A stretch of 62,583 nucleotides of DNA, filler included. It is 4 parts of 4 records of this genome, joined end to end, with 100 filler letters (N's around TTAATTAATTAA, not from the genome) between each part and the next. Parts side by side here need not be neighbours in the genome. Positions count along the whole stretch, not along the records: positions 51,383 to 62,583 come from SRR20825019_3066; 3 more parts are not named here. One strand, written 5' to 3'. Below the pieces are notes generated by a model, which saw nothing but the letters and a program-made list of their open reading frames with translations, did not search any database and had not been told where the DNA came from. Below, in pieces: positions 33,122 to 62,583 of the stretch. Each line of letters starts with the position of its first letter. Position 1 is the first letter of the stretch. The translations under genes were made by a program, and so were the position numbers.

Positions 33122-33135
33122 GAATTGGAATAGAC

Positions 33136-42244: not shown

Positions 42245-42247
42245 AAA

Positions 42248-42754
42248 ATGGCTTTGTTTGATTTCCAACTGATGCGCGAAAGCCAGGACTGGCCTTCGGA
42301 GGATGTTCTCGAAGAACTGGTAGAACGTGTTATTCCGACCGCGACGAGGCTTCTTCAGACCGAAGAAAATCAGCCTTTTCCCGATGCAGCGGTTGAACTG
42401 TCGCTCGTCTTCACTGATGATGAAGATGTTCGCGGGATCAATGCAGAATGGCGTGGGCAGGACAAGCCTACGAATGTTTTGTCTTTTCCAGCCTTTCCGG
42501 TTGCCCCTGGCCAGATGCCAGGTCCAATGCTCGGCGACATTGTGATTGCATATGAGACGGTGGCGCGTGAGGCGGTTGAGCTGGGAAAAAGCTTCGACGA
42601 GCATCTGATGCATCTCCTGACCCATGGTTTTTTGCATCTTTTGGGTTATGATCATGTAGAAAAACAGGATGCGGAGCTTATGGAGGGTCTTGAGACTCGC
42701 ATTTTGGCCGCACTTAACCTATCTGATCCGTATCAGGGTACGGACCCGGTTTAA
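42248..42754 (+). CDS. ybeY: rRNA maturation RNase YbeY
   Basis: DKPTNVLSFP, LGDIVI, HGFLHLLGYDH. Confidence 0.96.
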   Translation: MALFDFQLMRESQDWPSEDVLEELVERVIPTATRLLQTEENQPFPDAAVELSLVFTDDEDVRGINAEWRGQDKPTNVLSFPAFPVAPGQMPGPMLGDIVIAYETVAREAVELGKSFDEHLMHLLTHGFLHLLGYDHVEKQDAELMEGLETRILAALNLSDPYQGTDPV

Positions 42755-42767
42755 CGCTTAAGGAACG

Positions 42768-44003: not shown

Positions 44004-45508
44004 GGAGCATTTCGGCAAAATCCGGGGCTGCGCTGGCTCTGCTGAAAACTGGCCTTCAGCGGCTTGATGGCTGGCGTCTCTTCGCAGCCTTGTTTGCCTG
44101 CGGTGCGCTCGCCACATTTGCCCTTGCACCCTTTGGCTTTATTCCTGTGATGTTCATTTCAGTGCCCTGTTTCGTGTGGCTTCTGGATGGGGCTCTGACC
44201 GGTCTGTCGCTCAAGCTGCGGTTTCGTCGTGGTTTTGTCGCCGGCTGGTGGTTCGGGTTCGGCTATTTTGTCTTCGGGCTCTGGTGGCTCGGCGTCGCGG
44301 TCCTGAAAGATGCCGCGCACTTCGCCTGGGCGCTACCGCTTGCTGTGTTTGGCCTGCAATCTGTTCTTGCCCTGTTTTATGGCTTTGCTGCTGCACTGGC
44401 GGCACTGGTTCCGCGCCCGGGCCTGCTGCGGATCGTTGCTCTGGCGCTTTCATTTATCGCTGTAGAATGGTTGCGCGGGCATGTCGCCAGCGGGTTTCCA
44501 TGGAATGCACTGGCTTATACCGCTGTACCTACACCGCTTTTCATGCAAATCGTCCGGTTGACAGGAATCTATGTTCTCAGTGGATTGGCCTTCTTCGTTT
44601 TTGCTGCACCGGCTTTATTCTCTTTTGGCAGCCGCCAACGAAATGCCGGTTTAGTTCTGGTTGCAGTGATCATTTTCTTCGACATTGGGTACGGCGTGCA
44701 TTCACTTTCGCGTGAAGTGACGCCAGATGGCAAGTCGATTACATTTCGCCTGGTTCAACCAACCTTTAAAGATGAGCTATGGCGCAATCATGAAGGGCGT
44801 CAGAATATATTTGCAACCATGATTGCGATGTCATCGGCGGTGGAGCCGGGCGCGGGAGACCGTCCTGACGTTATCGTATGGCCGGAGAGTATTTTGCCGT
44901 TTCTGCTTGAGGAGCGGCCTGATGCACGCACGGTGATTGCAGAAACACTTCAGCCGGGACAGGTACTGATTTTTGGCGCCGCAAACTTTGCTGCCAGAAC
45001 GCCGGATGGGTGGCCGAAGTTTTACAACGCGATTTACGCCGTGAATGATGAAGGGGAGACCGTTTCCATCGCAGGAAAAACGCATCTCGTACCATTTGGC
45101 GAGTACCTTCCATTTGAAAGTTTCTTGCGTTCACTTGGTTTTGATACGCTCTCCAATATCGGTGGCAGTTATATCCCGGTTCCAAACCGGAAGGTGCTTG
45201 TGCTGCCTAATGGCCTGAAGCTCTATCCGCTGGTTTGTTATGAAGCAATTTTTCCACGTCTGACTGGTCAGGCAGCTGACGGTTCTGACCTGCTGCTCAA
45301 TATTACCTATGATTCATGGTTTGGGCGAACCCCCGGGCCTTTCCAGCATTTTGCACAGGCGCGACTTCGTGCTGTCGAGGCTGGAAAACCTATGATTCGT
45401 GTCGGTGAAAACGGCGTTAGCGCGATCATTACAGCCTCCGGTCGGATCATTCAGCGGTTGCCGTTTGATCAGGCAGGTTATGGAGATATAAAAATGACAC
45501 TCCAATAA
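44000..45508 (+). CDS. lnt: Apolipoprotein N-acyltransferase
   Basis: Multi-TM N-terminus, EWLRG..GFPW, and the catalytic triad in WPES / KTHLVPFGE / CYE; QHFAQARLRAVE. Confidence 0.95.
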   Translation: MRSISAKSGAALALLKTGLQRLDGWRLFAALFACGALATFALAPFGFIPVMFISVPCFVWLLDGALTGLSLKLRFRRGFVAGWWFGFGYFVFGLWWLGVAVLKDAAHFAWALPLAVFGLQSVLALFYGFAAALAALVPRPGLLRIVALALSFIAVEWLRGHVASGFPWNALAYTAVPTPLFMQIVRLTGIYVLSGLAFFVFAAPALFSFGSRQRNAGLVLVAVIIFFDIGYGVHSLSREVTPDGKSITFRLVQPTFKDELWRNHEGRQNIFATMIAMSSAVEPGAGDRPDVIVWPESILPFLLEERPDARTVIAETLQPGQVLIFGAANFAARTPDGWPKFYNAIYAVNDEGETVSIAGKTHLVPFGEYLPFESFLRSLGFDTLSNIGGSYIPVPNRKVLVLPNGLKLYPLVCYEAIFPRLTGQAADGSDLLLNITYDSWFGRTPGPFQHFAQARLRAVEAGKPMIRVGENGVSAIITASGRIIQRLPFDQAGYGDIKMTLQ

Positions 45509-45753
45509 AGTGTGGCTTGATTATAATGTGCGAAAATACTACCAATGGTAGTTAAATGTATCTCTTTATTAGTTCTTTTATACTCACGCTTAGGTTTCGC
45601 AATTCACACTGAATTGACCGAAAAACCCTAAAATTGCATAGTGAAGTGCTTCCGCACGCAACTAGGGCTTTTTATTGCCTAAATCTTGTGGTTGTATTGA
45701 CAATGGCGGGCTTTGGCTCGGGTCACTCGCCAAATTGGAACTAAGGAAGAACA

Positions 45754-46167
45754 ATGACAGAAAATAAAAAGAAGCCGAACCCGATCGACGTTCACGTCGG
45801 GAGTCGGATCAGATTGCGCCGTACGATGTTGGGCATGAGCCAGGAAAAGCTTGGTGAAAGCCTTGGAATCACATTTCAACAGATTCAGAAATACGAGAAG
45901 GGTACCAACCGTGTCGGCGCCAGCCGACTTCAGAATATTTCAACTATTCTGAATGTTCCGGTCTCGTTTTTCTTCGAAGATGCGCCGGGTGATCATGGCA
46001 CCAGTGCGTCTGGCATGGCGGAAGCTTCCAGCTCCAGCTATGTCGTCGATTTTCTTTCGTCTTCGGAAGGTCTTCAGCTGAACAGGGCGTTTGTGAAGAT
46101 CGGAGATCCGAAGGTGCGACGGAAGCTCGTTGACCTAGTAAAGACACTGGCAGCAGAGGCCGAGTAG
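45754..46167 (+). CDS. XRE-family HTH transcriptional regulator
   Basis: PNPIDVHVGSRIRLRR...SQEKLGESLGITFQQIQKYEKGTNRV, the typical alphaproteobacterial lnt-metK neighbour. Confidence 0.93.
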   Translation: MTENKKKPNPIDVHVGSRIRLRRTMLGMSQEKLGESLGITFQQIQKYEKGTNRVGASRLQNISTILNVPVSFFFEDAPGDHGTSASGMAEASSSSYVVDFLSSSEGLQLNRAFVKIGDPKVRRKLVDLVKTLAAEAE

Positions 46168-46193
46168 GGCGCAAGGTACTTCTATGCCAACAG

Positions 46194-46228
46194 AGCGGAA
46201 GGCGGCTTTCTGCCTTCTGCCGATTTCC
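46194..46228 (+). terminator. Possible intrinsic terminator hairpin after the XRE gene
   Basis: GCGGAAGGCGG-CTTT-CTGCCTTCTGC stem (with G-U pairs); weak U tract. Confidence 0.4.
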
Positions 46229-46268
46229 TGCGTTTTCACTCAGAGCCGCGTTCAGCCAGTCGGTGCTG

Positions 46269-46288
46269 ATATAAACGTATATTTATAT
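46269..46288. promoter_or_regulatory. 20-bp palindromic operator upstream of metK (SahR-like site)
   Basis: ATATAAA-CGTATA-TTTATAT with perfect 7-bp arms, about 70 bp upstream of the metK ATG. Confidence 0.6.
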
Positions 46289-46358
46289 TGTTGTGCGCTT
46301 GTCATTTGCAGATGAAATGTCTAACAAAATCGGGCAAGTTTCTATGTGGGGAATCCCG

Positions 46359-47597
46359 ATGCGCACCAATTATCTCTTTACAAGTGAATCTGTTTCTGAA
46401 GGTCACCCGGACAAGGTTTGTGACCGGATTTCTGATGAGATCGTTGATCTGGTATATCGTGAAGCGGTTAAAACCAATGTCGATCCGTGGAAGGTCAGAG
46501 TTGCATGTGAGGCACTGGCTACGACCAACCGGGTTGTTATCGCTGGTGAGGTGCGGTTGCCGCCGAGCCTGATGAAGCTCGACAAAAACGGCAACGAGAT
46601 CGTCAATCCATCCCGTTTCAAGTCGGCTGCACGTCGGGCAATCCGACATATCGGTTATGAGCAGGACGGGTTCCACTGGAAGAATGTGCGTATCGATGTT
46701 TTGCTTCATGCGCAGTCCGCGCACATTGCACAAGGCGTTGATAACGCTTCTGATCGGCAGGGTGACGAGGGCGCGGGCGACCAGGGCATTATGTTCGGTT
46801 TTGCCTGCCGCGAAACACCGGACCTGATGCCTGCGCCGATCTATTATGCACATCGTATTCTGCAGACACTGGCTGATGCCCGCAAGGCAGGCGAGGGGGA
46901 TGTGGCGCTTCTGGGACCGGATGCGAAAAGCCAGGTTACGGTTCGCTATGAAGATGGAAAGCCTGCAGAAGCCGTTTCAATTGTTTTGTCGACACAGCAT
47001 TTTGATGAAAGCTGGGATTCTGCAAAGGTGCGCAGCGTTGTCGAGCCGTACATTCGCGAGGCAATGGGCGAGCTTCCGATTTCGGATAATTGCAATTGGT
47101 ACATCAATCCGACCGGTAAGTTTGTTATTGGCGGTCCTGATGGCGATGCCGGGCTGACTGGCCGCAAGATTATCGTCGACACGTATGGTGGCGCTGCACC
47201 TCACGGCGGTGGCGCATTTTCCGGCAAGGATACGACGAAGGTGGATCGCTCCGCAGCCTATGCGGCCCGTTACCTCGCCAAGAACGTGGTTGCGGCCAAT
47301 CTTGCAGAAAAATGCACGATTCAGCTTTCCTATGCGATCGGCATCGCGCAACCCCTGTCGGTTTATGTCGACTTCCACGGAACAGGGAAATACCGGGAAG
47401 ACGATGTTGAATTGGCGATCCGGGAGGTCATGGACCTTTCGCCGTCCGGCATCCGTCGGCACCTGGATTTGAACAAGCCCATTTACGCCAGGACTGCTGC
47501 CTATGGTCATTTCGGACGCAAGGCCGGTCGCGACGGTTCATTTTCCTGGGAACGGCTCGATCTGGTGCGGCCGCTCAAGCAGGCCCTCAAAGGGTGA
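46359..47597 (+). CDS. metK: S-adenosylmethionine synthetase
   Basis: [49 protein letters not shown]. Confidence 0.98.
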
Positions 47598-47626
47598 AAA
47601 CGGACGTCTGTATCTCGGAGTTTTTG

Positions 47627-48331
47627 ATGAGCAGTAGCGGCGATGACAGCAGACAGGCTGGCAAAGCGTTCTTTGGTCGCCGTAAGGGGAAACCCCTGCG
47701 TGCGCGACAGGCGCGTAATCTGGAAGAGCTCCTGCCGCAGCTGACGCTTGACCCGAACGCGCCACCGCCGGTGCATATATCCGAACTCTTTGCCGCCGAT
47801 CTTGCGAAATATCGAATGGAAATCGGCTTTGGTGGCGGTGAGCATCTTATCCATCGGGTTCTTGAAAGCCCCGATACCGGTTTTATCGGCGTAGAACCGT
47901 TCATCAATTCCATGGCCAAGCTGCTCGGTCAGGTCGAAGGAAAGAGCGTCGGCAATATTCGTCTTTACGATGATGATGCGGTTGATATCCTCGACTGGCT
48001 GCCTGACGCTTGTCTTGATCACATTGATTTGCTTTATCCAGACCCTTGGCCGAAGCGGAAGCACTGGAAACGCAGGTTTGTCTCTCAGGACAATCTTGGC
48101 CGGTTTTATCGGGTGCTGAAACCCGGTGGCCTGTTCTGTTTTGCATCCGATATCGATACATATGTAAACTGGACATTGCTTCACTGCCGCAACCACGGCG
48201 GTTTTCGCTGGGCAGCACACTCGGCGGAAGACTGGCATGTGCCTTATGCCAACTGGCCCGGAACACGCTATGAAGCGAAGGCCAAACGCGAAGGCCGGCA
48301 AACGGCCTATCTGACTTTCAAACGCATCTGA
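47627..48331 (+). CDS. trmB: tRNA (guanine-N7)-methyltransferase
   Basis: [34 protein letters not shown]. Confidence 0.96.
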
Positions 48332-48389
48332 TTTGCCAAAGCCCGCAAATTTTGGGCTTTATGGGGGCATTTTCCGGAAGATCGGATGC

Positions 48390-48671
48390 TCAGTGCAGCG
48401 TGGCCGTTTTGATATCGTCTTCCATGGCTTTGAAGAAGATGCTGGTGCGGTTTTCCGTGAGCAGGATCAGTGAGCCATCGGCATCGAACAGGGCCCACAG
48501 ACTGTCGGCCTTTGAATGCAGGTTGGCCGCATCGGGAAACTGGCGAACGGCATCTTCCAGAGCAAGCTTGCGGAAATAGCCGATATGACCGGCGCCAAGG
48601 CTTTCAAGGTGAATGATTTCGTTGCTAAGTTCTGCGCGCAGCGGTTCCATAGGGCTTGGAAGACCTTTCAA
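48390..48671 (-). CDS. DUF1150-like small protein
   Basis: LGAGHIGY...LWALFDADGS.ILL...TATLH, located directly downstream of Hsp20 as is usual for this family. Confidence 0.7.
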   Translation of the reverse strand: MKGLPSPMEPLRAELSNEIIHLESLGAGHIGYFRKLALEDAVRQFPDAANLHSKADSLWALFDADGSLILLTENRTSIFFKAMEDDIKTATLH

Positions 48672-48734
48672 TCCGTCGTGTTTTGAAGTCTGACCTTGCG
48701 CTTTGTGTAAATCGGCAGGGCCAAGCTGACCTGC

Positions 48735-49136
48735 CTATTCTGGAACCGAAATGTTAATTTTTCGTACCTCTTTGGGCGTTCGGCTAATATCAATATTCAA
48801 AAGTCCACGTTCGAGATATGCGCGCTTCACATCCATCCCGTCCGCCAACTGGAACTGGCGCTTGAACTGTCTTCCGGCGATTCCACGATAAAGAAATTCA
48901 CCATCTTGCCGATCTTCCTGAAGGCCTGTCACCAGCAGCAGATTGCTTTCGCAATAAAGCTCAAGCTCACTTTCACCAAAACCGGCAACCGCCAGTGTAA
49001 TTCTCAGAAACACGCCATCCGGCTCGTCGGGAAACCAGGCAATATCGAAAGGCGGGTAGCCGGCACCACCTTTGACGACCGTATCGGCGGCGGTTTGCAG
49101 GATCAGTGGGTCGAAGCGCAGATCTATTCGCGGCAT
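48735..49136 (-). CDS. Small heat-shock protein (Hsp20/IbpA family)
   Basis: GYPPFDI, LRITLAVAGF, FLYRGIAGRQFKRQFQLADG, GLLNIDI. ATG 49136 after AAGGA. Confidence 0.9.
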   Translation of the reverse strand: MPRIDLRFDPLILQTAADTVVKGGAGYPPFDIAWFPDEPDGVFLRITLAVAGFGESELELYCESNLLLVTGLQEDRQDGEFLYRGIAGRQFKRQFQLADGMDVKRAYLERGLLNIDISRTPKEVRKINISVPE

Positions 49137-49163
49137 GTATCCAGTCCTTTTCGTCTCTGTGCG

Positions 49164-49192
49164 ATATGGAAGTGTTTCCGTCTGATGGCAAG
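49164..49192 (-). promoter_or_regulatory. Putative RpoH (sigma32)-type promoter for hsp20
   Basis: The minus strand reads CTTGCC-N17-CCATAT, about 28 bp upstream of the hsp20 start. Confidence 0.4.
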
Positions 49193-49308
49193 GGTTTGAA
49201 AAGTACTTACCTTCTTGACAAGCAACTACGAACTGCGCACTGCTCTCGGTTGTGCCGGGTTTGAATACCGAGTTCGATTTAGCGCATTTAAGGAAAAAAA
49301 GGGAAGCC

Positions 49309-50253
49309 ATGGCTGTTGCACGAAAAATCATCATCGATACGGATCCCGGACAGGACGACGCCGCCGCAATTTTGCTGGCGCTGGCGAGTCCGAAGCAAAT
49401 TGAGATTTTGGGCATCACTGCAGTCGCCGGTAATGTTCCACTTGAAATGACAACGCGGAATGCGCGAATTGTCTGTGAGCTTGCTGGGCGCACGGACATT
49501 AAGGTGTTTGCCGGCTGTGACCAGCCGATGAAGCGCCCGCTGGTTACGGCTGAACACGTTCATGGGAAAACCGGGCTGGACGGGCCAGAACTGCCTGAAC
49601 CAACGATGAAGTTGCAGGAACAACATGCCGTAGATTTCATCATTGAAACCTTTCGCGAATACCCTGAAAACGCCATTACGTTATGCGCTCTTGGTCCGCT
49701 CACGAATATCGCGACAGCTTTTGAAAAAGCCCCGGATATTATTGGCCGGGTTCAGGAAATCGTGTTGATGGGCGGCGGTTACTTCGAAGGCGGCAATATC
49801 ACCCCGTCTGCCGAGTTTAATATTTACGTCGATCCCGAGGCGGCAAAGGATGTTTTTGCGGCCGGTGTTCCGATCGTGATGATGCCGCTTGATGTTACGC
49901 ATCAGCTCTTGTGTCTGAAGAGCCGCGTGGACCGTATCGAGGCCGTTGGTAATAACGCCTCCAGGGCAATGGCCGAGATGCTTCGGTTTTACGAGCGTTT
50001 CGATGTTGAGAAATATGGCTCGGATGGCGGCCCGCTTCACGACCCGGCTGTCACAGCCTATCTCCTCAAGCCGGAGCTTTTCTCCGGCCGCCAGTGCAAT
50101 GTCGAAATTGAGGTTCAGTCTGAACTGACCCTTGGAGAAACCGTAATCGACTGGTGGGGTGTGACTGACCGGAAACCCAATGCACTGGTGATTGGAAAGG
50201 CAGATGCTGACGGCTTTTTCGACCTTCTTACGGAGCGTCTGGGACAGCTTTAA
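49309..50253 (+). CDS. Inosine-uridine preferring nucleoside hydrolase
   Basis: IDTDPGQDD, VAGNV, HVHGKTGL, LGPLTN, AEFNIYVDPEAA, PLHDP. Confidence 0.95.
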   Translation: MAVARKIIIDTDPGQDDAAAILLALASPKQIEILGITAVAGNVPLEMTTRNARIVCELAGRTDIKVFAGCDQPMKRPLVTAEHVHGKTGLDGPELPEPTMKLQEQHAVDFIIETFREYPENAITLCALGPLTNIATAFEKAPDIIGRVQEIVLMGGGYFEGGNITPSAEFNIYVDPEAAKDVFAAGVPIVMMPLDVTHQLLCLKSRVDRIEAVGNNASRAMAEMLRFYERFDVEKYGSDGGPLHDPAVTAYLLKPELFSGRQCNVEIEVQSELTLGETVIDWWGVTDRKPNALVIGKADADGFFDLLTERLGQL

Positions 50254-50331
50254 AGCGCTTGACCTTCGTCAGTCCTGCAGAATGTCGCGCATTTCAATCT
50301 GATGAAATGCTCTGAAGGTGGCCGCTTAAAC

Positions 50332-50360
50332 AAATGTCCGGATATGTGATCCGGACATTT
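50332..50360. terminator. Bidirectional terminator-like hairpin between convergent genes
   Basis: Perfect 12-bp stem AAATGTCCGGAT-ATGTG-ATCCGGACATTT. Confidence 0.7.
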
Positions 50361-50396
50361 ATCATCAGAAAAGACGGTCGTAAGACCACTGCAATC

Positions 50397-51282
50397 TCAA
50401 AGACGGTCTTCTACTTCTTCTGACAACGGAATGGATGGCTGGGCGCCTGGCTTCAGGCAGGCCAGAGCGCCTGCTGCTGCTGCCCGATGTGCGGCTTTTT
50501 GAAAATCCAGCCCCTGATCAAGACCGGCGGCAAGGTAACCGCAGAATGTGTCGCCTGCGCCAACCGTATCCAACGGCTCGATTGTCAGGCTTTCAATGCG
50601 GTGAAACGTGCCCTCATGCATGGCCACGGCACCTTCACCACCGAGCGTGATCACAACCGTCTGGCCGGTTTCGTCATGATAGGTCTTCAGCATCGCGATC
50701 CGGCCCTCGCTGCCAAGCTCGTCCGCACCGACCAGGCGTTCAAACTCGGTCTCGTTTGCAATTACGATGTCAGCCATCCGGCCAAGTTCAGCGGCTTCGG
50801 CCGTGAGTGGTGCGGTGTTTAAAACCGAAATAACATCCCGTTCACGCGCTGCTTCAAGTGCGGCCCTGATGGCCGGTGCAGGAATTTCAAGTTGCAGCAT
50901 CAGGATATCACCTTTTGCCATGTTTGCGACGGTGGCTCTCGCATCGTCTTTCGAAACTTCGCCATTGGCCGCAGCATTGATCACGATAACATTCTCGCCG
51001 TGACGATCAACAAGGATCATCGCGGTTCCCGTTGGTCCGTCAGTCTTTTTGAGCGTGGAAAGGTCTATGCCGGAGTCGGCCAGCAATGCGGTTGCAGGCA
51101 CGGCAAACTCATCGCTTCCAATCGCGCCTGCCATGCAGACTTCTGCGCCAGCTCTGCGTGCAGCCAGCGCCTGATTGGCGCCCTTTCCGCCAGGTGCTGT
51201 GGAAAAGGAATGCCCTGCAACAGTTTCGCCGGGTTTCGGCAGTCTTTCGGTTGTGGCGATGAGGTCCATATTGATGGAACCA
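50397..51282 (-). CDS. rbsK: Ribokinase, 5' truncated
   Basis: GSINMDL at the contig edge, GGKGANQA, LQLEI, NETE, DTVGAGDTF. Confidence 0.92.
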
Positions 51283-51382
51283 NNNNNNNNNNNNNNNNNN
51301 NNNNNNNNNNNNNNNNNNNNNNNNNNTTAATTAATTAANNNNNNNNNNNNNNNNNNNNNNNNNNNNNNNNNNNNNNNNNNNN
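51283..51382. other. Artificial contig linker N44-TTAATTAATTAA-N44
   Basis: Same 100-bp spacer. Confidence 0.98.
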
Positions 51383-51413
<31 letters not shown>

Positions 51414-51678
51414 CCCTACGAAGAAAATCAGGATGTTCAGTGAAAGGATTTCTGCAAGTGAAAGTATCACTGCGACGTTGGGCTTCCCCGGGTTATGAGT
51501 GTGGTGGATCCTGGCCCTTCCCACCGTCACGAGACTGAGTGTCAAGAGAAGACAGCAATAAGGAAACCCCGAGACGGATTTGCCAGAAGCGAAGTCAATC
51601 ATCGCAAAGGGCGACGAAAGATGGAAGGTGAAACCCGCAGTGACGGAGTGAACGTCTCCTTCACTTCTTTTACTGAGC

Positions 51679-52622
51679 ATGACCCCGACGGTAGGAAATA
51701 TATTCTTTGTTTCACAGGAACAAGTTAACGCGCGCGCAGCTGCTGAAATTTTTGCGGAGGAGGAGATCCCCTCGGAAGCAAAGTTGTGTGGTGTCACTAT
51801 TGAGACCATCGTTATGGTTGTATCATGCCTCGATCTCTTCTTAATAGGTTGCCAAGCTCTGCTGTTGTACCACGTATTTACACAAGGTTGGAATGCAACT
51901 GGTCACTTTCTAACCACACAAACCTCACCAATATGTGACTAGGAGAGTTAGTGTTTCGACTATTAGTTTGCATTGTGAATTTGCCGTTTGCCTTTTGTGG
52001 TTTACTGTCAACGATGAGGCACTCCATTTGGATGCTTGCGTGTTACTCTCTATGGAGGCTTTTATGGTTTATCATTTGGGTTTTCGCTGTCCTTTTCATA
52101 GGAGGTCAAGTCGCTCTTCGAGTTCTCCAGGCAGGAGGCGAGAAGATCGCGCTGGGGTCAGTGGTGCTCTTGGTAGTTCTCTTCCTAAGTGTAGGAGTAA
52201 TTGCCTTCCAAGTATGACTGAACGGTCACACCAATTTTGATACTGAGACTTATTAGAATTTTAGGTTTTCTATTTCAGAATATTGGCCAACTATTACAAA
52301 CACATGGATGTCTTCTCTAGGAGAAGGCAGACCGCAGGCTTCTTGCGCTTGAGACAGGAATCTGAACCAGGCGGCACACCACTCCGACGAACCTCTCATG
52401 CAGAAGCCATGGAACGATTACAACAGATTCGATCAGAAGCTGGTACGTTCGAGTGCTTTCTAGCACAACCCATCTTATCAACCATGGAATCTGACGATAA
52501 TTTCAGCTGCGAGGCGCGGAATTAATCTTGAATACGAGGAGCATGATGATGAACATGTCGTTCGCCCCCCTCTCCCACCTGACAGTGACTCGGATGAAGA
52601 AAGTCGCTCTGATGGGCCGTAA
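51679..52622 (+). CDS. Spliced eukaryotic membrane protein (about 4 TM helices); 5' end uncertain
   Basis: Hydrophobic exons (IVMVVSCLDLFLIGCQALLLY; LLVCIVNLPFAFCGLL; LLWFIIWVFAVLFIGG; VVLLVVLFLSVGVIAF) are separated by short GT-AG introns. The acidic last exon ends ...DSDEESRSDGP-TAA at 52622. Confidence 0.55.
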
Positions 52623-52669
52623 GGGCCTGGGCAGGCCGGGCGCGAACCCGAGTTAAGTCATATGTTGCG

Positions 52670-53311
52670 CTATGTTTCTCCTATGGATATCGTGGCTCTT
52701 TCGTCAGTGTTTGTGCTGCTCATCTTCATCGATTTCATCTTATTTTCGGTAGACGCTCGAACACGAGAAACCTCTTGTTCCATGTAGTCAAGTTGGCCCT
52801 GTGTTTTGTCGAGAGCATTGTCGAGCACCTGCAGCATAAATCCCAGAGACTCAAGCTTTCGGTGAAGCAAGCGCATGCGATATTGGTCTACAGTCTCGCC
52901 ATTTTGCTCAGTGGAGCTTGGTGAAAGAATAGGTTTTCCGTCGTCACCTACAGCGTCACTATTCAGAATCTTGCAGGCCCGCACAAGAGATGCAGTAAAG
53001 CTTGTCATGTTATGCTTACCTAATGTCCTAAGTCTACGAGTGGTGCCTGGCCCGTTTCTGCTCTTGCTATCTTCCTCCTTGAATGTGTTATGTTCAGATC
53101 GAGTATGCCTGACAGGCTTTCGGCCCGTTTCGTTGTCATGATGAATTTTCGTAACATGACTTCGTCTCAGCACCTGTTTCTCTTGCCCACTAGACTTGTG
53201 TAGACTGTGCCCCTCTACGATAGCAAAAACGGTAGCCACAATCAAAACCGCTCTCAGGCCCGGTGCTACCGCCCGAGTGTAGCTGTACAGCAGTCTCCAG
53301 TTTGCACCCAT
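52670..53311 (-). CDS. Putative secreted protein with C-terminal coiled coil (213 aa)
   Basis: ATG 53311. Hydrophobic stretch AVLIVATVFAIVEG, then a basic/His-rich region and a heptad-like C-terminus. Intronless. Confidence 0.7.
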   Translation of the reverse strand: MGANWRLLYSYTRAVAPGLRAVLIVATVFAIVEGHSLHKSSGQEKQVLRRSHVTKIHHDNETGRKPVRHTRSEHNTFKEEDSKSRNGPGTTRRLRTLGKHNMTSFTASLVRACKILNSDAVGDDGKPILSPSSTEQNGETVDQYRMRLLHRKLESLGFMLQVLDNALDKTQGQLDYMEQEVSRVRASTENKMKSMKMSSTNTDERATISIGET

Positions 53312-54468
53312 AGTAACTTGGGGTGACACGAGAAACAGGAAAACAAAGCGAGCGATGTGTTGTGAGTTTAAGGTGACGCGGCGGCGTGGTTTGAAAAACT
53401 TTACCGTGGTCACGAGTGTTGAGTGGTTGTTCCAGCAGTTAATACTTCAGATATAAATGACCACACACACTCCCGGCCAGAATTGGCAGGCCGCCTGTGC
53501 CAGCACAGAAAGAACTCAGCGTTCGCGTGTTCGCATTGTACACGCGGCTGGGTGAAAAATGTTTTGTGCGTTGTTGCAAGTTAGCGGACTGAGATACTAC
53601 ACGCCGCACCAGACCGGCATGCGGAAACGAGTTGGCCGCGGCCGGTGAGTCCGGGCGGCCGGGTGGCCGTCGCCGTTCTAAGTACGTCCTCGCACTCAGC
53701 TGGCTGAACCCACGGCTGGGTCTGGTTCCAATTGGTGGCGCGGTCTCTGCTAGCTTTACCATACACTTACCGTACGTGGGCGCACACGGTTCCTCCTCTC
53801 AGAGAGCAGGCTGAACACCGGGACGCGGGCCACCGTCCTCTGATGGCGCCGGCGAAATGGATTGTCAAGATGAGCTGCTCTTTCTCATCTGGTTCAATAT
53901 TATTTTCAGTTAAATATTAGAAAGAACTATTCATATTAAAATCGTCGAGTAGGTGGTTGAATTTGGATCAATCAGGATCAGTGCGGTGGCCGGCGGCCGG
54001 AGCCGGACCGGCCACGCGGCCGGACGGCGGAGGCGGCCGGCACGGCGCCGCCGGCCCGCCGGAACCTGACTCCCGTCCCCGCACCCGACCGCGCCCGGGC
54101 TGGGCGGCGTGGCCGAGCGGTAACGGCGAGGCGGCGGGCATGCAGGCTGACCGGACGGCTGGGTATTGGCGTGTCCTCGCGCGCCGCGTCAGTGGCTTTG
54201 GAGGCGGACAGGACAGGTGCCCCTCGCCGTTGACGTGTCTCCGGTGCCGGTCAGTCTGCTCGCCCGGCCGGGCAGTTTTCGCTTGGGTCTTGTGGGCGAG
54301 TTCTCGGGGGTTTACGCGGGCATCGTCACATGCTAGCCGTTTGACCTGAACTTAAGTCACTGTACAATCCTGAAGTGTCTTAGGAGCTATCACTTAGGTG
54401 TATCGAACGAACTCAACCCTACAGTTTGATTGACGTTGAAGGTGAATCTCTGGAAAGAACTGCAGAGA

Positions 54469-55551
54469 ATGCATACGCCTTGGTCCTATCGAGGGCAATA
54501 TCTAGAAGTGTGTTTCTTTTTGGCATTAGTCGCTGCGTGGATGCTTCCAACGCAAGTACTGGCGGAGAAAACGAGCAATATTCTAAGCCCTTCAACTCAT
54601 AAAAGGTTTGATAGTTCCGTGGATTTTGGGGAGACCCCCATCTCTGCAGGTGCAGAGGTGGCTCCAGATGTACTCCTTGATCTTACCCAATACCACATGT
54701 TGGCAAGGAGTGCAACAGCAGTGAAGATTGGCCACACATCGAAGCACCTCGCTAAAAGAAAAGGGCGCGGAAGGAAAAAGAGTAGGAAGCGACGACGGAG
54801 TGACATTTATAGTGCAGAAGAAAAGCACGGAAAGGAACGACATGAGAGACTTGCTCATGGCAGTGCTTACAAGGCATCCCAAGGACAAGACCATGGTTGT
54901 GACTCAGAGCTACATTCTCTAACATACCGTGGGCGGGCGTACTGTGGGAAGACTCGACGTGAGGTTGAAAACGTTGCTTCAGACGTCACTAATGGCCCTA
55001 AACGGGGAAAGTCGAGGGGTAGGTCTGGCGCACGGAAGTCAAGGTCTTCTAGTCGGTCGACTTCAAGGAGCTCCGGCAAGAAAACCCAATCTTCCCGAAG
55101 AAGTAAATCTTCTTCCGCGGCTGGAGGCGCTGCAGCTGGTATTGCGGAGGGAGTTGCAGGAGAGGCCCTTGAGGGGGCTATGGGTGGGGGAGGAGGCGAG
55201 CCCGGACCAGCAGACGAGGGGAAGGACAAGGTGTCCGCGGGCGGTGATTCCAAGTCTTCTGGTACGAGCACCCCGAAAACGTCTGACTCCAAAGGATCAA
55301 GCTCTAGTTCCTCAAGCTCTCCTCAAGCAATTGGTGGCGCACTGTCCGTTGAGCAGACTGCTATCGAACAGCTCAGTTTTGCGTTAGACATGCAGGATGG
55401 ACTATTGGATGCCAGTCAACAACAACTTGACTCCATGTCACAAGAATTGGAGCGGCTCAAGGCGATGCAAAATAATAGGCTTGAAGGAGCCAAAGCGTCA
55501 ATGGGTCTTGTGGATCAAGTCGCTGGGGGTATGACAGGAAAGAAAGATTAG
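54469..55551 (+). CDS. Putative secreted K/R/S-rich protein with C-terminal coiled coil (360 aa)
   Basis: ATG 54469. Signal-like VCFFLALVAAWMLPTQVLA, polybasic and Ser/Gly-rich low-complexity middle, and heptad-like C-terminus. Intronless. Confidence 0.75.
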   Translation: MHTPWSYRGQYLEVCFFLALVAAWMLPTQVLAEKTSNILSPSTHKRFDSSVDFGETPISAGAEVAPDVLLDLTQYHMLARSATAVKIGHTSKHLAKRKGRGRKKSRKRRRSDIYSAEEKHGKERHERLAHGSAYKASQGQDHGCDSELHSLTYRGRAYCGKTRREVENVASDVTNGPKRGKSRGRSGARKSRSSSRSTSRSSGKKTQSSRRSKSSSAAGGAAAGIAEGVAGEALEGAMGGGGGEPGPADEGKDKVSAGGDSKSSGTSTPKTSDSKGSSSSSSSSPQAIGGALSVEQTAIEQLSFALDMQDGLLDASQQQLDSMSQELERLKAMQNNRLEGAKASMGLVDQVAGGMTGKKD

Positions 55552-55842
55552 TATGTCATTCAACACGAACTGAAGAATTGGATATTCGTGGATCCTGTGT
55601 TGATACCATGAGGGTTGCATCCCGAGAAATGCCAGCAACAGCAGCAGCAGGATTGGCGCGAGGAAGGGGTGCACACCTGTTGCACCTACTCGGTAAATGT
55701 GTGATAGCCCCTCCATGTACACGAGAACATTTCGATGTGGGGTCGTTCCTCAACATATTTGCATATGAAGGCGAAGTCTGGTTTAGAAATAAACATTGGG
55801 GTTCAGTTTAGTAAAAGTTAGTGAAAGTGAGGTAAGGTCTTT

Positions 55843-58053
55843 CTACAGTGTTGTTTGGAGATATTCAGGCCTCGATATTGCCCTCCGCATCTTTTCATCG
55901 CGCATCTGCGTCAGGCGGTCCAGTTCTACAGTGTACGTATGGCGAATAAAGTTCATCTCGTCCTTGATTCGACGAGACTGGTGCTTGTTACTCAAAGCCT
56001 TCAGCCTGGTAGGTCTCTCTTGATATGCCGATGCCTTGTGAGTAGTAAGATTCATTACAGTGTTTGAAACTACAACGCGCTCCTTCTCTCTCTCACTGGG
56101 CATTCCCTTGCTTGGAGAACTCGGTAATTTTTTTGTAGGAGATCTATCATCAATTCGACCAGCAGGTCTATTCCACAAAACCACCGGCTCATCCTGAATC
56201 TCTGTTTTCTTGATTCTCTGTTCTTTGGTTTTCTTCGGTTTGGACTTGGATCTTCCCTTGCGCTTAGCATCAGGAGAAGGAGTCCGCCACCTTCCGCCTT
56301 TTTCATACTGCATCGGCAGTTTAAGGCACAAATTCGATAGAACCAGAAAAAACTTACGTCGCTCTCATCAGAATCCTCGCCCGGGCTCGGACTTCGTCGG
56401 CGACCCTTTGGCTCCGGTGTGTCGGTCTAGCGTTACATCAATGTTAGCTTATTGCCATAGTTTCAACTTAAAGCACAAACCTTGCGGGTGGAGTATGGAG
56501 ACACATAATTGGTAGCAAAGCCCAAAGTGGTTTTTGGACGAGGAGGAGGCTCGTCCATGTTGGCCTTAGCAAGCTCCTTGTTCCGCAAATGATCAGATAT
56601 GGCCTTCGGGTCATGAATTGCGAGAGGAACTTCTTTTCCACCGTTGGCTTGGACAATGGAAGATTTGAGCATGGCTTCTTCTCTGTACAAACTTTAGCTC
56701 CATTTGAATTAATTTTCGACTGAAATACATACTTGAACTTATTGAGCCTCAAGAAGCAGAGATCACAAACTTTGACTCGTTGCCACCGGAAGGTCAAGTT
56801 TGTCTTCAAATTATTGTATTTCTTCTCATTGATAGTGGAGTGTGCTGCTTGAATGCTGGGTGGTACCACTTGTTCACGCTCGCTCTTGAGGTTAGATGTT
56901 CGTCGCATTTCGTCGAATCCAGTGATGATGGCGGAGTATTGGATGGGATGCACTCGATCCGGCTCTACATCTCTCATGTTAGAGATCACCACCACTTGGA
57001 CCATAATATGTGATGTACTTACGAACTAGTTTTTTGCAATTGGGACACTCGAAAGAGCGCACCAAACAAATTGGAGAGCCTTGTGTGCCCGTAGACGCTT
57101 CGAGCATGACCTTCTCAGGTACGAAAAGGTCCCTGGATATATTCAACGGAACCGTCGGTACTTCACGCCGTGTCAGAATGGTGCTAGGCTGTACTCGAAG
57201 CGAACTACACCAAAGGAGCCAAAGCTTGTCATCCGGACTAACTTTGAAGTGCAAAACCATGCGAATGATCTTTGTTTTGTTATGGGTACTGTGGGCAACG
57301 TGCCTGACAATATTGTGGCAAATAGTCTGAATGCGAGAAGCGATGAAGTCACCCCTCATGGGTACGGTATAGCATTGGTGCTCCAGCCCATCATATGTTA
57401 CAGCACGCTCATATAGATCATATCGCGACGCTCTCAAAGGTAACTTATTGATTCTTTTCTCTATCAAGCACACTCTTGGAGACCAGATTGCTCGGATAAT
57501 AACTATGCAAAATGTAAGCTGGAAGCTTCACAACAACAGACACGACCTACAGTTATGTTTGCCTTTAGGAGGTACAAACTTTTGCAGCATTCCGTCATTG
57601 ATTTTCTTTCGATGGAAGAGGAAATCGTCTAGTCCGGTTACATAAGCAAGAAATCGCGAGGGAAACCAAACGAAACTTACTTAGCGAATCCTGGTCTAAA
57701 TATTCTATTGTAGCACTTTCTGGGTCATCTTCGTTCACCTGTGGCTTTCTCGCAATATGAAAAGCAACTAATTCACATGTGTCATTCTTGTCACTCTTTC
57801 GCACAAACCCATCATATATGCCCTGATTGTTGAGTTTGTTTTTGCTGCGCTTTCGTATTTGCCCATCAACCATAGAAGAGTAAAACCAATAAGCCGGCTG
57901 TCGATACTTGTACAGTAGTGTGTCCGGAATCAGGACGTTAGGGCATGTGTGGGCAACATCATTCCCATCTGCATCTTGACTCATCACCTTGGTCCATAGG
58001 AGATGGTTCAAGTTTTCGACCACACCGTCACCTTCCAGGGGAAAGCTCGTCAT
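55843..58053 (-). CDS. Multi-exon hypothetical protein
   Basis: ATG 58053. ORF pieces 57595-58053, 56979-57473, 56468-57004, 56463-56690 and 55843-56331 lie in tandem with short GT-AG gaps. Ordered N-terminal part (IPDTLLY, TIEYLD, LQKFVPPKG, IRAIWSP, YERAVTYDG), two CxxC motifs (CPNC, CDLC) and a basic tail. Confidence 0.7.
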
Positions 58054-58990
58054 AGTGCAGATCCCTTGGTGGCCCCCTTCTTTTGCACTCCTTCAGGTGG
58101 CAAACTTTACATATTTAACTTTTGTCTATGGACGCTATGCGCCGGTCTCTCAGTGTGCCGGAGCTTGTTAGGGCCTGTCACTAATGGTCGGCCTCCACGG
58201 ATGATAGTCTCATGGACGCGCCGGGGGCTCGGCGGGCTAGCTGGTTGAATCTCACATCGGTCCGTTGCAACGAGCCCTAAACATGAACCTGAGGCCACCC
58301 TGCCCTAGCAGTACTGCCCTAGCTGCTGTGAGTAACTCCAAGTGTACTCGATTGGTGTCATCCGGTAACGACTATTTAATATGTGATTATGTTCAAGATT
58401 AGTACGTTGTTGCATTATTATGGGTACACTCAGCCCGGGCCTCCTAATCAGTCCCGTGCCCGACCCCGGGGCCGGCCGCCGGCGGCGCGGCCAGTCCGGT
58501 CACCGGGCAGCCGCGGCAGCCTGGCCGGCCGAGGCCCTCCCGGCTCCGCGCGGCAGCCTGTGAGCCGGTGGGAACGTCACGTGCGGGGTTGGGGCACGGC
58601 CGGGCCATTCTGGTTGCCCGGGCCGAGCCGCGGCCCGCCGGACGTCGCGTCAGGCGTGAGTGTCGGACACCGCCGGCAAGGGACCGGCCGCTCACGCGCC
58701 GATTCCGGCTGCGTGTCGCCTGGCCGCGCTTCGACGCCGACAGTGAGGCTTGTGGTCATTCACGCGGCCGTTCAGTTGAGAAGGCCGGCGACCAAACTAT
58801 GGGGCAATTGGGAGGCTCTATCTGCGACGGGCGACCCGGACAGGCCACTGGCAGGCGCTCACTGACTCCACGCCGCTGACTCCGCCTGTTAGTTTGATAT
58901 TGTACTTGAGCTCACAATAATGTTGGCCTTAAGTAGTTGGCAACTCCATCGATACAACGTTCGCCAGGTGGCAAATCAAAAAAGTCATCT

Positions 58991-61203
58991 ATGGGTAAAA
59001 AGAACAAGAAGCATAAGTCAGGTGGGTCAGACGCTTTGTCAGCACCTAGTAGTGAGAAGCCCCAGCCAAAACGAAAGTATGATGAGAGTAGCGATGATGC
59101 TCCCAAAAAGAAAAGAATAACCACGAAAACTGATGACGTCGGGGAGCTTTCATTTGAGTGGGCCATCGATCCGGTACCACTTTCTACTTTCGAGGATGAA
59201 TACTTTGAGAAAGAGTCTCTCACCGTAAATAGAGAAAACCCATACTTCAACTTTCCAGAGCTGGGGAGTATTGATGACTTCTTCTCCTTGATAAATGGAA
59301 GCGGTGTCATATTCGGGACGGATTGCGATATCCTGAAATATACACACTCAAGTGAAGATCTTTCTCGGAAAAATCTGGTCGGTATTGGAAACAAGGCAGC
59401 GGCACTGAAAGAATACAAGAATGGTTACTCTGTGAGAATCAAGAATTTACATCTCTTTTCCAATAGCGTCCGGCAAATGCTGGACAAGATAGGTGCGTTG
59501 TGCTATCTCCGCAGACAACACAGTCTGGCTTACTCATGTTTAGATGCCTTCTGGGGTGCAAAGGGAGCAAAAGCGGTCGCGTACGCGATGCCCGCCCATG
59601 GTGAGGCAGTCCCCCCTAGTTATGATGTGCAGGATTGCTTGTTGCTGCAAATATCTGGAGCTCAGAAGATCCGCTTCTATGAGCCCGCTGAAGGAGATAC
59701 ACAGTTATCCCTTGCCCCTTGCCCAGACTTAAGCAAGGATGAAATTGGCAGCCCTAGGAAACTAGTTCGGTTGAGCGCTGGTGGGACCTGCTACATTCCG
59801 CGTGGAAGCATTTATCGTTGCGCTGCTGTGGCAGACTCTCCAGCTCTATTTATTGTTGTATACATTGGCAACCGGTATTTTGGCTGATAATGTTGAAGGT
59901 GTGGAGGTCACTGAACTTTGGCGCAGGCCAACATGGTATGATATGCTACAGGAAATGATTGTCCAAACCATGAAAGAGGACACATGTCAGTAATACCACG
60001 GGTCAATAGTGTTCTGTACGTTTGCTGACATAATTTCTAGTGCAAAACAGGAGAGCTCTCCCGCGTGGATTCTTTGAGTATATGGGAGTAACAAAAACAG
60101 ATGACGAAACAAACCTCGACAGGATCGGCTTTGTGCAGACTGCTGGGTCGCTTGCATTGAAGGCACTGGACAAGTCAGAGCAATATATTGATGTTGCTGG
60201 TACGTCCATGCTATCGTATGCATGATATTGCTATGCTGATGTCTTCTTTGACCAGCTGAAGTTGTTGGATTGAGAACTGGGTACGGTGTTTCGGACTTTC
60301 AGCTTGGAATGGACGAGCTTCCCTCAGGCAAGAAGCTGCGAGAGGAGCTGCGCCGTTCAGGTGAGCATGGTTTCTCCTACCCTACCATGTTGATCATTAC
60401 TGAGAGAGCATGTTCCAGGAGGGCTGGTGAAGGTTAAGAACTTTTTGCCCGTTGAAACGGCCGAAAGGATATTGGCCACTCTTGAGAATATTAATTCTGA
60501 GGGATGGGCATCAACGGAAGCATATGAAGACCATAAGGAGAACAACATTAATCATGCATTTTTGTCGACAAAACGGTTTCCTAACGCAGATGTGATCTTT
60601 CGCACCTTCAAGCAAATGTTTCCAGACCTTCCAAGTGTATTCTCCGCGGCTAAGGTATCAAAGACTATGGTGTAAAGCTGCCTTGTCGTGTTGACGAGCA
60701 AGCAATATTTGCAGTATCAACAGAGCCACAACATAGAACCACATGACGATCGTGCTTACAAAGACTTCTACGGAGAAACGTACTCAAGGTACGACAGTGA
60801 GAGAGCCGTGACCTCATGTCTTCTTAGCCCGAATCCCTGTGCAGAGATATTGCTCTGATATACTATCTGACGAAAGACTGGAGTGAAGCTGATGGAGGTA
60901 CTGACTTCAAGTGCTGGCCGAGACACTGATATCTAATGCCCTTCCAGGCTGCCTTAAGGACTTGAAAACAGGCAAAACGTATGTACCGGAGTTCAACTCC
61001 ATCGTTGCATTTGAGGTTCCCCGTTACCATGAAGTGACCCCTGTCGCCTCCTACAAGAAAGCACGTTTTTCACTATTTGGGTGGTTTCACACCAAAGGTA
61101 GCGTGACTAAAAATGCAGTTGTACATTCGTAGCTAGCTTAACATGTCTCCAATATACAGGTGAAAAATATGATCTGTACAAGGGTGACGATGAGGAAGAA
61201 TAA
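58991..61203 (+). CDS. NO66/RIOX1-like JmjC domain (degenerate iron ligands) fused to a C-terminal 2OG-Fe(II) oxygenase (OGFOD1/PHD-like); 10 exons
   Basis: ATG 58991. Nine GT-AG introns of 50-62 bp (59493-59543, 59875-59926, 59986-60040, 60200-60255, 60361-60418, 60655-60714, 60789-60844, 60898-60947, 61098-61159) give one open frame to TAA 61203. NO66-like motifs: FEWAIDP..F..EYFEK, GYSVRI, LLQISG, YIPRG, TWYDML, RRALPRGFFEYMG. C-terminal motifs: IEPHDD, IYYLTKDW..DGG, P.FNSIVAF, YHEV, RFSLFGWF. Confidence 0.8.
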
Positions 61204-62525
61204 ATCTTCGACAACCGAGCGTTCTTCGGGGTTATGATTATTCACTGAAGCTTTCTTTTCAGAGTCAGACCACTAGCTTTGCAAGTTCTGACGAGACAAT
61301 TGGTTGTATACTGAGGAGCTTTCAACCTCCAAAAACCAAAAGTGTGAAGCCCATCACCATGCAGCAAGCACCAACGTAAGGGCTTAAGCGTTCTCCTGCA
61401 ACTTCTTTAGACCATAAAACGCGAGTAACAACCTCAAGCTCGTACCAATTCTTGCACTCTTCCAAAACAACCCCCGAAACCTGTGGCAAATGTCACTATT
61501 TCCATATCAGGTCTATAAATCTACAACACGCATACCCTTTCTTATGACTATCGAGAATTGCAGGGTACTTCTCGTGGATGTATGCACAGGTGCATATCAA
61601 AAGCAGGATAACCTGCAGCATACTGAAAAAATTGAAGAACGCAGACTACAGGTACATGATTAGTGAAGGTCTAGTGAATTATACAACACTTCATGGTTTA
61701 CCATATTGGACTAGCGTTATCGCTTTCATCCGGCTCGTCCTTCCAGTTATATTAGGGTAGTTGCGCATCGTAGCGGGGACTGGACACGGCGCTCGTTGAA
61801 GGCACACCGTCCCCGGCAGGCGGGCCCCGGCGTGGGGCGCCATGACATGCGTGGCTGCGTCCGGTGAGCTCGTGAGGCACCCGGCGGGCCGGCGGCCAGA
61901 CGACCCTGACCGTATGCACCGGGCCGCGCCGGGGCCGCCGGGGGGGGCCACCTGACCGCGCCCCGGCGGGCGGCGGCCCGGGCCGCCGGGCCGGCCCACC
62001 AAACCTGGCTGACCCGCCGGAGGACCCGCCGGCCGCCGCCCGGCCTCGCGGCGCGGCCGGTGGCCGCCGTCCGGCGCCCCCCGTCCGGGCCGGCAGCGGA
62101 GCCTGACTCGCAGCTGGCCGGGCCGGCCCGGCAGTGGACTCAGCTCGGCGCGGCGGGTCAGGTGCCCGGCGCGGCCCCGGGACTGAGCCGCGAGCCCGCG
62201 TGAGTGCCGACCGGGTAGGCGGAGCCACCAGGGCATGGCAGTGAGTGGCTGCGGACAGGACGGAACTTATTAAGGAGCGGCGGCCCGGCCCCCGGCCCGC
62301 CGGCACGCGGCCCGGCCGGCCACCCGTGGCGTCAAGGGGGGGCCGCTGGGCGGTGCCGGCCGGCCGGGCGCTGTCCCGGTGCGCGAGCTCACCCACCCCG
62401 ACCACCCAAGTGAGGGTGTACCTCTGGTACGGCCCGGTGCCCCGCCGGGTGGTCGCGGCCCCGCATACACTCGGGACTGCGTTCAAGCACAGAGCGTGAA
62501 GGCATTTTCAGTAAACTGCTTGCGT

Positions 62526-62583
62526 GGTGTGTGTGTGTGTGTGGTTAGGGAGAAGCAGGGGGGGGGGGGGGGGGGGGGGGGGG
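62526..62583. repeat. (GT)n microsatellite and poly-G contig end
   Basis: gtgtgtgtgtgtgtgt followed by a terminal G run. Confidence 0.85.

Follow-up and report, generated by a model that had tools for sequence, protein, structure and literature searches.

The window analyzed here, a stretch of 62,583 nt in which four contigs are chained, contains at positions 58991-61203 on the plus strand a gene whose product joins two oxygenase-related modules. The N-terminal module is related to the ribosomal oxygenase RIOX1/NO66 and has a degenerate active site, and the C-terminal domain is a 2-oxoglutarate (2OG)/Fe(II) oxygenase with an intact one. We regard this architecture, together with the assignment of one module as dead and the other as live, as nearly certain. 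The gene is one spliced message joining the dead NO66-like module to the intact oxygenase, and on the sequence comparisons described below its product is best read as a single-center hydroxylase, probably prolyl. The full explanation, in which a mechanism is added to the architecture and to the dead/live split, appears moderately probable.

The gene comprises ten exons and nine GT-AG introns of 50-62 nt. The model was assembled manually, on the basis of GT-AG sites and all three reading frames; it runs from an ATG at 58991 to a TAA stop at 61201-61203 and gives a coding sequence of 1713 nt and a protein of 570 amino acids. An initial annotation of the window had proposed nine phase-compatible introns yielding one protein, and this proposal was borne out. 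The frame is open across all nine exon joints, and a 1763-nt intron-less contig from the public run X1 corresponds to 58963-61184 with no differing letters. This contig, a single record, omits 51, 52, 55, 56, 58, 60, 56, 50 and 62 nt exactly at the predicted GT..AG sites, which are introns 1 to 9 at 59493-59543 (in frame and without a stop), 59875-59926, 59986-60040, 60200-60255, 60361-60418, 60655-60714, 60789-60844, 60898-60947 and 61098-61159. The junctions at introns 4 and 5 had been flagged for checking, and both are spliced in the X1 contig. The contig begins with a 5′ untranslated leader (58963-58990) preceded by 22 loose letters. X1 was the only sequencing run found to contain the gene stretch, with 60% of the sampled words, and no run listed as RNA contained it. 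We take the loose ends of the contig to be a template-switch oligo (5′) and a transposase adapter (3′), and because of this resemblance the contig is best read as complementary DNA.

The gene could in principle be an artifact, in which two adjacent genes were merged by a wrong model or a chimeric contig. A contig that spans two genes does not alone prove one transcript, and the window is itself a concatenation of contigs. However, the frame is open over all nine joints, all joins lie within the single contig 51383-62583 (the last of the four, which holds the gene entirely), and independent relatives encode both parts, in the same order, in single open reading frames (ORFs). We therefore consider such a merger extremely improbable. 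The exons have a G+C content of 36-54% and are set between spacers reaching 65-78%.

The protein starts with a basic tail (residues 1-49, 58991-59137) with 14 Lys/Arg, in agreement with the Lys-rich N-terminus noticed initially. The tail includes the clusters KKNKKHK, PKRK and PKKKR, which may act as a nuclear localization signal (NLS). The NO66-like module, made up of a JmjC fold and a dimerization region, covers residues 15-352 (59033-60260). A read-through of exons 1-2 (294 residues, intron 1 being in frame) matched the Pfam family JmjC_2 (PF08007) with an E-value of 2e-7, and a phmmer search of the PDB returned human NO66 as the best match (9.4e-17), with MINA53 at 2.3e-10. In the phmmer alignment, PPSYDVQD of the window protein pairs with APHYDDIE of NO66, and YIPRGSIY with YFPRGFIH. 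According to the excerpt of PMC6006756 consulted, these enzymes bind the metal through an HxD/E...H triad, and the Lys that contacts the 2OG C5-carboxylate lies 15 residues past the first His. An exhaustive HMMER search of the module against 1.84 billion representatives gave 508 matches, the top one with 31% identity (E-value 7.5e-18), and the module therefore has no close orthologue among these representatives. A word-index protein search with the N-terminal 294 residues found no match among longer proteins.

Column counts were made on the 150 best of these 508 relatives, aligned with the spliced window protein. The columns of NO66 H340, D342, K355 and H405 hold H in 148, D in 148, K in 146 and H in 145 of the 150 relatives, and the window protein has S193, D195, Q208 and Y258 at these positions (codons S193-Y194-D195 at 59618-59626, Q208 at 59663-59665 and Y258 at 59813-59815). 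The loss of the NO66 iron ligands, proposed initially, is thus seen in S193 and Y258, and the change of the 2OG Lys to Q208 is a further loss beyond that proposal. A hidden Markov model (HMM) built from the 150 relatives scored the window protein at 222 bits over model positions 48-386 of 555. The matched span corresponds to the JmjC fold and the dimerization helices, and positions 387-555, the winged-helix part, are unmatched. No exon piece of the gene matched the Pfam winged helix PF21233; of 13 relatives scanned, 10 have this domain, one of these with a match that falls short of the curated cut-off. By its sequence, the module descends from RIOX1/NO66 and lacks the metal His pair, the 2OG Lys and the winged helix; with all of these lost, it is predicted that it cannot be an oxygenase. 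The dimerization-like region suggested initially also stood, since the HMM match extends to position 386. The helical remnant at about residues 277-358 runs from the end of exon 2 to exon 5 (59870-60278, introns 2-4 included).

Outside its catalytic positions, the module retains the equivalents of NO66 S295, R297 and Y328. The excerpt of PMC6006756 lists R297, Y328 and S421 as contacts of NO66 with the Rpl8 peptide, and a portion of PMC8667043 places K355 and H417 of NO66 at the carboxylate of active-site ligands.

Six of the 150 relatives also depart from H-D-K-H at the catalytic columns. Three of them (P0060, P0133 and P0144) lack at least two of the four residues and read QSFA, HEFQ and RDFQ, respectively; in P0127 the Lys alone is altered, and P0142 and P0143 end before the distal His. 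Thus, judging from the alignment, dead NO66 paralogues arose more than once. The winged helix is kept in P0060 and P0133, P0144 gave no Pfam winged-helix match, and no second oxygenase domain was present in any of the three. More broadly, a phmmer search for the C-terminal oxygenase in the 150 NO66 relatives returned no match at E-values up to 10, and none of their alignments reaches past residue 392.

The C-terminal domain occupies about residues 356-560 in exons 5-10 (60270-61170), and the protein terminates about 10 residues past it. Exon 9 alone matched the Pfam families 2OG-FeII_Oxy_4 (E-value 2.2e-7) and 2OG-FeII_Oxy_3 (1.3e-6), two models that score alike. Against the PDB, exon 9 matched OGFOD1 (4nhx, E-value 4.9e-5), in an alignment that pairs the distal His and the R-x-S motif of the two proteins, and Tpa1 more weakly; exon 6 gave chance-level matches only. 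The alignment equates H474, D476, Y496, H534, R546 and S548 of the window protein with OGFOD1 H155, D157, Y169, H218, R230 and S232, the OGFOD1 numbers being derived through a 20-residue offset of the 4nhx chain. The roles of these six OGFOD1 residues are taken from the accessible part of PMC4396695. The HxD metal motif is encoded by codons H474-D475-D476 at 60742-60750, the 2OG-contacting Tyr by Y496 at 60864-60866, the distal metal His by H534 at 61028-61030 and the RxS 2OG motif by R546-F547-S548 at 61064-61072. All of the expected residues are present, as the initial annotation had stated for the second oxygenase site. From its alignments, the domain is therefore placed in the prolyl-hydroxylase clade, with OGFOD1, Tpa1, PHD2 and the bacterial and Dictyostelium prolyl hydroxylase domain enzymes (PHDs), and is classified as a complete 2OG/Fe(II) oxygenase; it is predicted to be the only catalytic center of the protein. 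Pfam scans of the window pieces and of relatives gave no Ofd1-type C-terminal domain, and neither module occurs a second time in the window.

The fusion recurs in other organisms. A search with exon 9 retrieved one fragment (P0151, 74% identity), and an alignment of the two retrieved four metagenome loci. One of these, L002, is a single uninterrupted ORF of 705 amino acids that holds both modules. It aligns with the window protein in two collinear segments, at residues 11-297 (22% identity, E-value 1.4e-9) and 313-563 (42% identity, 1.2e-55), and its N-terminal half scores 31 bits against the NO66 HMM. Another locus, L001, is 50% identical over window residues 382-570 and is apparently unfused. 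A profile search with the C-terminal domain then identified 39 longer proteins, of which 18 carry the NO66-like module upstream by HMM, and one more (P0190) carries it downstream. Named fused members come from Balamuthia mandrillaris (P0171), Creolimax (CFRG0986T1, P0172), Amoebidium parasiticum (P0173) and Acanthamoeba castellanii (P0192), and collinear two-module relatives are also encoded on unnamed contigs. The alignments to the window protein cover residues 19-562 for P0173 (31% identity), 20-565 for P0158 and 1-566 for P0157; the best full-length relative, P0163, is 35% identical over residues 143-567. A basic N-terminus recurs among these relatives. Unfused forms of 380-480 amino acids occur in Chlamydomonas, Volvox, Pleodorina, Micractinium and Chromera, and a Guillardia relative of 471 amino acids is only partly alignable. 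Three distant members carry other partners in place of the NO66-like module: SET (PF00856) in P0186, TPR (PF13428) in P0180 and collagen repeats in P0189.

The two modules of the family differ in their conservation. In the hmmalign alignment, all 16 alignable fused rows have Gln in the Lys355 column. The distal-His column holds His in one of 15 rows, the Acanthamoeba N-terminal module, which itself lacks the HxD region. The first metal His is still present in 10 of 15 fused rows, and the full H-D-K-H set occurs in no alignable fused row. The catalytic columns of the C-terminal domain are conserved as H in 37, D in 39, H in 38 and R in 38 of 41 family rows, and its signatures are invariant over the long motifs I.PHDDRAYK, FNSxVAFxVPRxHxV and PR[YF]SxFGWF. 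Within the L002 subgroup, the N-terminal halves are 46-62% identical, compared with 69-84% for the C-terminal domains; between the window protein and other members, the values are 24-30% and 48-56%, respectively. Identity is thus kept in the N-terminal half across the family, so this half appears to be constrained and not decaying; on these values it diverges about twice as fast as the C-terminal domain, yet is clearly constrained.

In a FastTree phylogeny of the C-terminal domains, from which two partial rows were left out, the fused forms make up a basal grade, and the unfused algal and Chromera forms are nested within it. Because the Lys-to-Gln change and the architecture are shared, we favor a single early origin of the dead-module fusion. 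The database names of the relatives, all of them automatic, include "uS12 prolyl 3-hydroxylase", "Tpa1-like proline 4-hydroxylase" and "Rps23 Pro-64 3,4-dihydroxylase Tpa1-like"; NCBIfam assigned no family to the four family proteins submitted. No paper on the fusion family was found in a literature search that mostly did not cover subscription journals. On the sequence record, then, the fusion is a conserved eukaryotic family of amoebae and animal relatives that is already in public databases without a paper that we could find. The fusion is thus not a one-off, and no publication came to light that would make it an already characterized family.

For structural analysis, fold and complex predictions were run on intact relatives (the window protein was searched as exon pieces for Pfam). 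The C-terminal domain of L001 was modeled with a predicted local distance difference test (pLDDT) of 87 and a predicted template modeling score (pTM) of 0.80. Its fold matches, with template modeling (TM) scores of 0.43-0.50, were OGFOD1 (9e-10), the Dictyostelium PHD (1.5e-9), a Pseudomonas prolyl 4-hydroxylase, PHD2 and Tpa1, and PHD-type enzymes are at most an order of magnitude behind the first-ranked OGFOD1. The full-length model of P0163 (pLDDT 86.8, pTM 0.84) shows long helices at 280-295 and 303-331 between two β-helix domains, and its fold matches were NO66 (7.8e-15), MINA53, OGFOD1 and YcfD. Look-alikes of P0163 in the ESM Atlas were generic JmjC_2 clusters only (0.85).

A homodimer prediction for residues 35-534 of P0163 gave a score of 0.38, compared with 0.02 for the best of three controls. 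This mark was reached by 21 of 30 solved one-chain pairs and by 0 of 23 single chains, and for eukaryotes by 17 of 29 pairs and 0 of 30 single chains. At least 41% of the contacts agreed between the runs, and the partner pLDDT was at least 72. The predicted interface is symmetric and consists of residues 276-332, the NO66-type helices, which map to residues 277-358 of the window protein. The dimerization helices are therefore predicted to pair in this proxy, but the result may reflect memory or likeness, because NO66-type dimers have already been solved.

One family member combines the fusion with a complete NO66. The Acanthamoeba castellanii protein XP_004337527.1 (P0192, 1219 amino acids; in the cluster of P0176, 1209 amino acids) has three modules in one ORF. 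In P0176/P0192, a degenerate NO66-like module is followed by the oxygenase and then by a complete NO66 with H-D-K-H and the winged helix. At the sequence level, this fusion of the Rosetta-stone type is the best available hint that the family acts with NO66. A metagenome segment, L003:189-614, resembles a genomic copy of a near relative of P0192/P0176 and has two in-frame inserts, which may be introns.

These results suggest the following mechanism, which we put forward tentatively and hold at somewhat less than an even chance. The basic tail would bring the protein into the nucleus or nucleolus, by analogy with RIOX1, which carries an N-terminal NLS according to the excerpt of PMC6006756. There, the protein would pair by way of the NO66-type helices that it has kept, and the dead JmjC module may provide a rigid, non-catalytic docking surface for a substrate or partner, an idea for which the metal-free C-terminal domain of OGFOD1/Tpa1, as presented in the accessible part of PMC4396695, serves as the analogue. 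The C-terminal domain would then hydroxylate a protein residue, most likely a proline, and the leading candidate target would be a ribosomal or pre-ribosomal protein. A ribosomal target is plausible, and the only points that link the family to the ribosome are indirect: the retained equivalents of R297 and Y328, the basic N-terminus and the Acanthamoeba fusion to a live NO66. The initial interpretation, in which a dead ribosomal-oxygenase domain is kept as a scaffold for a second hydroxylase, is thus supported in part.

Several observations weigh against this explanation. At three positions where NO66 contacts the Rpl8 peptide or lines its pocket, the window protein is altered (T330M, H417F and S421Y), a point against unaltered binding of uL2. 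Models of relatives that are 35-50% identical underlie the structural and dimer results. OGFOD1, the PHDs and the small-molecule enzyme PolD (rank 41) give fold matches of comparable strength (TM scores of 0.43-0.50), so prolyl specificity can only be guessed from clade membership. Unfused oxygenases exist in Chlamydomonas, Volvox, Micractinium, Chromera and L001, so the dead module is not needed for the enzyme as such. The tree of N-terminal modules, from which three rows were dropped for too few aligned residues, was uninformative under midpoint rooting; re-rooted on a canonical sequence, it groups the 16 dead modules as one clade with a weak support of 0.27. The record of run X1, from which the spliced contig comes, states no kind and does not identify it as RNA.

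Three other functional readings were weighed against the proposed docking mechanism. The protein may be a replacement uS12 (Rps23) prolyl 3-hydroxylase, that is, a functional OGFOD1/Tpa1 in which the metal-free C-terminal domain was swapped for an upstream dead JmjC module; if uS12 is the target, the family would illustrate how one domain of a known enzyme is replaced by a non-orthologous one. Among solved structures, OGFOD1 matches best both by sequence (E-value 4.9e-5 for exon 9 and 0.0038 for L002) and by fold, database pipelines call the relatives uS12 or Rps23 hydroxylases, and OGFOD1 likewise combines a live domain with a dead double-stranded β-helix (DSBH) domain in the portion of PMC4396695 consulted. 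However, identity to OGFOD1 is 21-22%, PHD-type matches are almost equal, Pfam did not find the Ofd1-type C-terminal domain and the names of the relatives are automatic, so that we rate this reading as rather unlikely. A similarly low probability is given to a non-ribosomal target of the C-terminal domain, such as another nuclear protein, a nucleic acid or a small molecule, with the dead JmjC as a structural or regulatory appendage. Unfused forms are common, other members bear SET (P0186), TPR (P0180) or collagen repeats (P0189), and a small-molecule oxygenase is among the fold matches. Nevertheless, the top fold matches are all protein prolyl hydroxylases, and the Acanthamoeba link to a live NO66 and the retained R297 and Y328 equivalents also weigh against this reading.

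The dead module might instead pair with a live NO66 of the organism and thereby bring the oxygenase to uL2 or the pre-60S particle, or modulate NO66. The Acanthamoeba chain, with its dead module, oxygenase and intact NO66, fits such a partnership, as does P0190, in which the oxygenase is likewise followed by a NO66-like module. The dimerization helices are also kept and are predicted to pair in the proxy, a result that may reflect likeness to solved NO66 dimers. Since the triple form is found in one named species and two fragments only, we consider this partnership distinctly unlikely. In its most far-reaching version, which we offer as a long shot, the family would be a third, so far unrecognized eukaryotic class of ribosome-linked hydroxylases. 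A dead NO66 paralogue would carry a PHD/OGFOD1-like prolyl hydroxylase to the NO66 site (uL2/pre-60S) while still pairing via the NO66 helices, possibly with live NO66; two hydroxylations would be made from one platform, and the invariant Gln would mark a pocket re-used for peptide reading instead of catalysis.

To our knowledge, only a handful of ribosomal protein hydroxylases have been described, namely NO66, MINA53, YcfD and OGFOD1/Tpa1. The family bears on the question of why ribosomal hydroxylases keep dead β-helix partners. It offers what looks like a natural experiment, in which a NO66 copy lost catalysis early, because the Lys-to-Gln change is common to all members, and has long been constrained beside a strongly conserved live oxygenase; in one amoeba, the dead module adjoins a live NO66 as well. 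Study of these proteins could reveal a new protein hydroxylation in the ribosome or nucleolus, and it could clarify how pseudo-enzymes come to serve as targeting modules.

The remainder of the window has a mixed content. Spacers of the form N44-TTAATTAATTAA-N44 at 29314-29413, 39527-39626 and 51283-51382 chain the four contigs (1-29313, 29414-39526, 39627-51282 and 51383-62583), and adjacency across the spacers is meaningless. The contig 39627-51282 is of bacterial type and carries in tight order miaB, phoH, ybeY, corC, lnt, metK, a gene for a TrmB-like methyltransferase, a nucleoside hydrolase gene and pfkB; its MiaB is up to 75% identical to proteins from Hyphomicrobiales (Chelativorans, Rhizobium and Mesorhizobium). 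As this bacterial contig stands alongside an intron-bearing one, the assembly mixes a bacterium and a eukaryote. A chimera or a transfer of the bacterial operon into a eukaryote was considered and is ruled out by the spacers, which mark separate contigs. On the first contig, a single frame of 863 amino acids at 18863-21451 (minus strand) shows an unusual combination of PhyH (another 2OG oxygenase family), HEAT repeats and guanylate kinase.

On the contig of the fusion gene, a convergent neighbor lies at 61228-61760 on the minus strand, with its 3′ end about 25 nt from the oxygenase-gene stop. A second X1 contig skips 50 and 55 nt of this gene (~61395-61444 and ~61479-61533) with CT..AC ends. 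Upstream, four consecutive exon-like open frames at 55846-58092 (minus strand) appear to form one gene, and none of them has a Pfam match. Genes of 43-50% G+C are parted by CCGG-rich low-complexity spacers of 65-78% G+C (58100-58900 and 61750-62500). The only repeats in this contig are GC-rich low-complexity matches, and nothing near the gene points to a mobile element. At its end (62526-62583), the contig consists of a (TG)n run and about 26 G, apparently a sequencing artifact.

The window protein can be compared with four groups of known or related systems. RIOX1/NO66 is the uL2 His216 hydroxylase (PDB 4ccj, 4ccm and 4diq). Like this enzyme, the window protein has a JmjC_2 fold followed by a helical dimerization domain and preceded by a basic N-terminal extension, and it retains the equivalents of S295, R297, Y328 and D342. 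In contrast to RIOX1/NO66, it carries H340S, K355Q, H405Y, T330M, H417F and S421Y and lacks the winged helix. With the ribosomal oxygenases RIOX1, RIOX2 and YcfD as a group, enzymes that hydroxylate a His or Arg in ribosomal proteins, it shares the JmjC_2-type fold and the dimerization helices (a predicted dimer in the proxy), but not the Fe(II) triad, the 2OG Lys or the winged helix.

OGFOD1, Tpa1 and Ofd1 are uS12 (Pro62) prolyl 3-hydroxylases (PDB 4nhx and 3kt7). They resemble the window protein in the catalytic DSBH domain with HxD...H, Tyr and RxS, and they provide the best solved match to its C-terminal domain. As in OGFOD1/Tpa1, one live and one metal-free β-helix domain appear to be present per chain, and such a pairing of a live domain with a dead DSBH domain in OGFOD1 is described in the accessible text of PMC4396695. 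However, the dead partner in the window protein is derived from JmjC/NO66 and lies upstream, whereas that of OGFOD1 lies downstream; identity to OGFOD1 is limited to 21-22%, and the Ofd1-type C-terminal domain is missing. The PHD-type enzymes (human PHD2, Dictyostelium PhyA, 6t8m, and Pseudomonas PPHD, 4j25) have fold matches of 1.5e-9 to 1e-8, close to OGFOD1, but they are about 20% identical, lack a JmjC partner and have known substrates. The family members from Balamuthia, Creolimax, Amoebidium and Acanthamoeba share with it the module order, the Lys-to-Gln change and the signatures of the C-terminal domain. These named relatives are at most 35% identical overall to the window protein, and the Acanthamoeba protein adds a live NO66. 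Among the two-module members, the dead module of the window protein is the least diverged from NO66, with 222 bits against 24-106 bits in the others.

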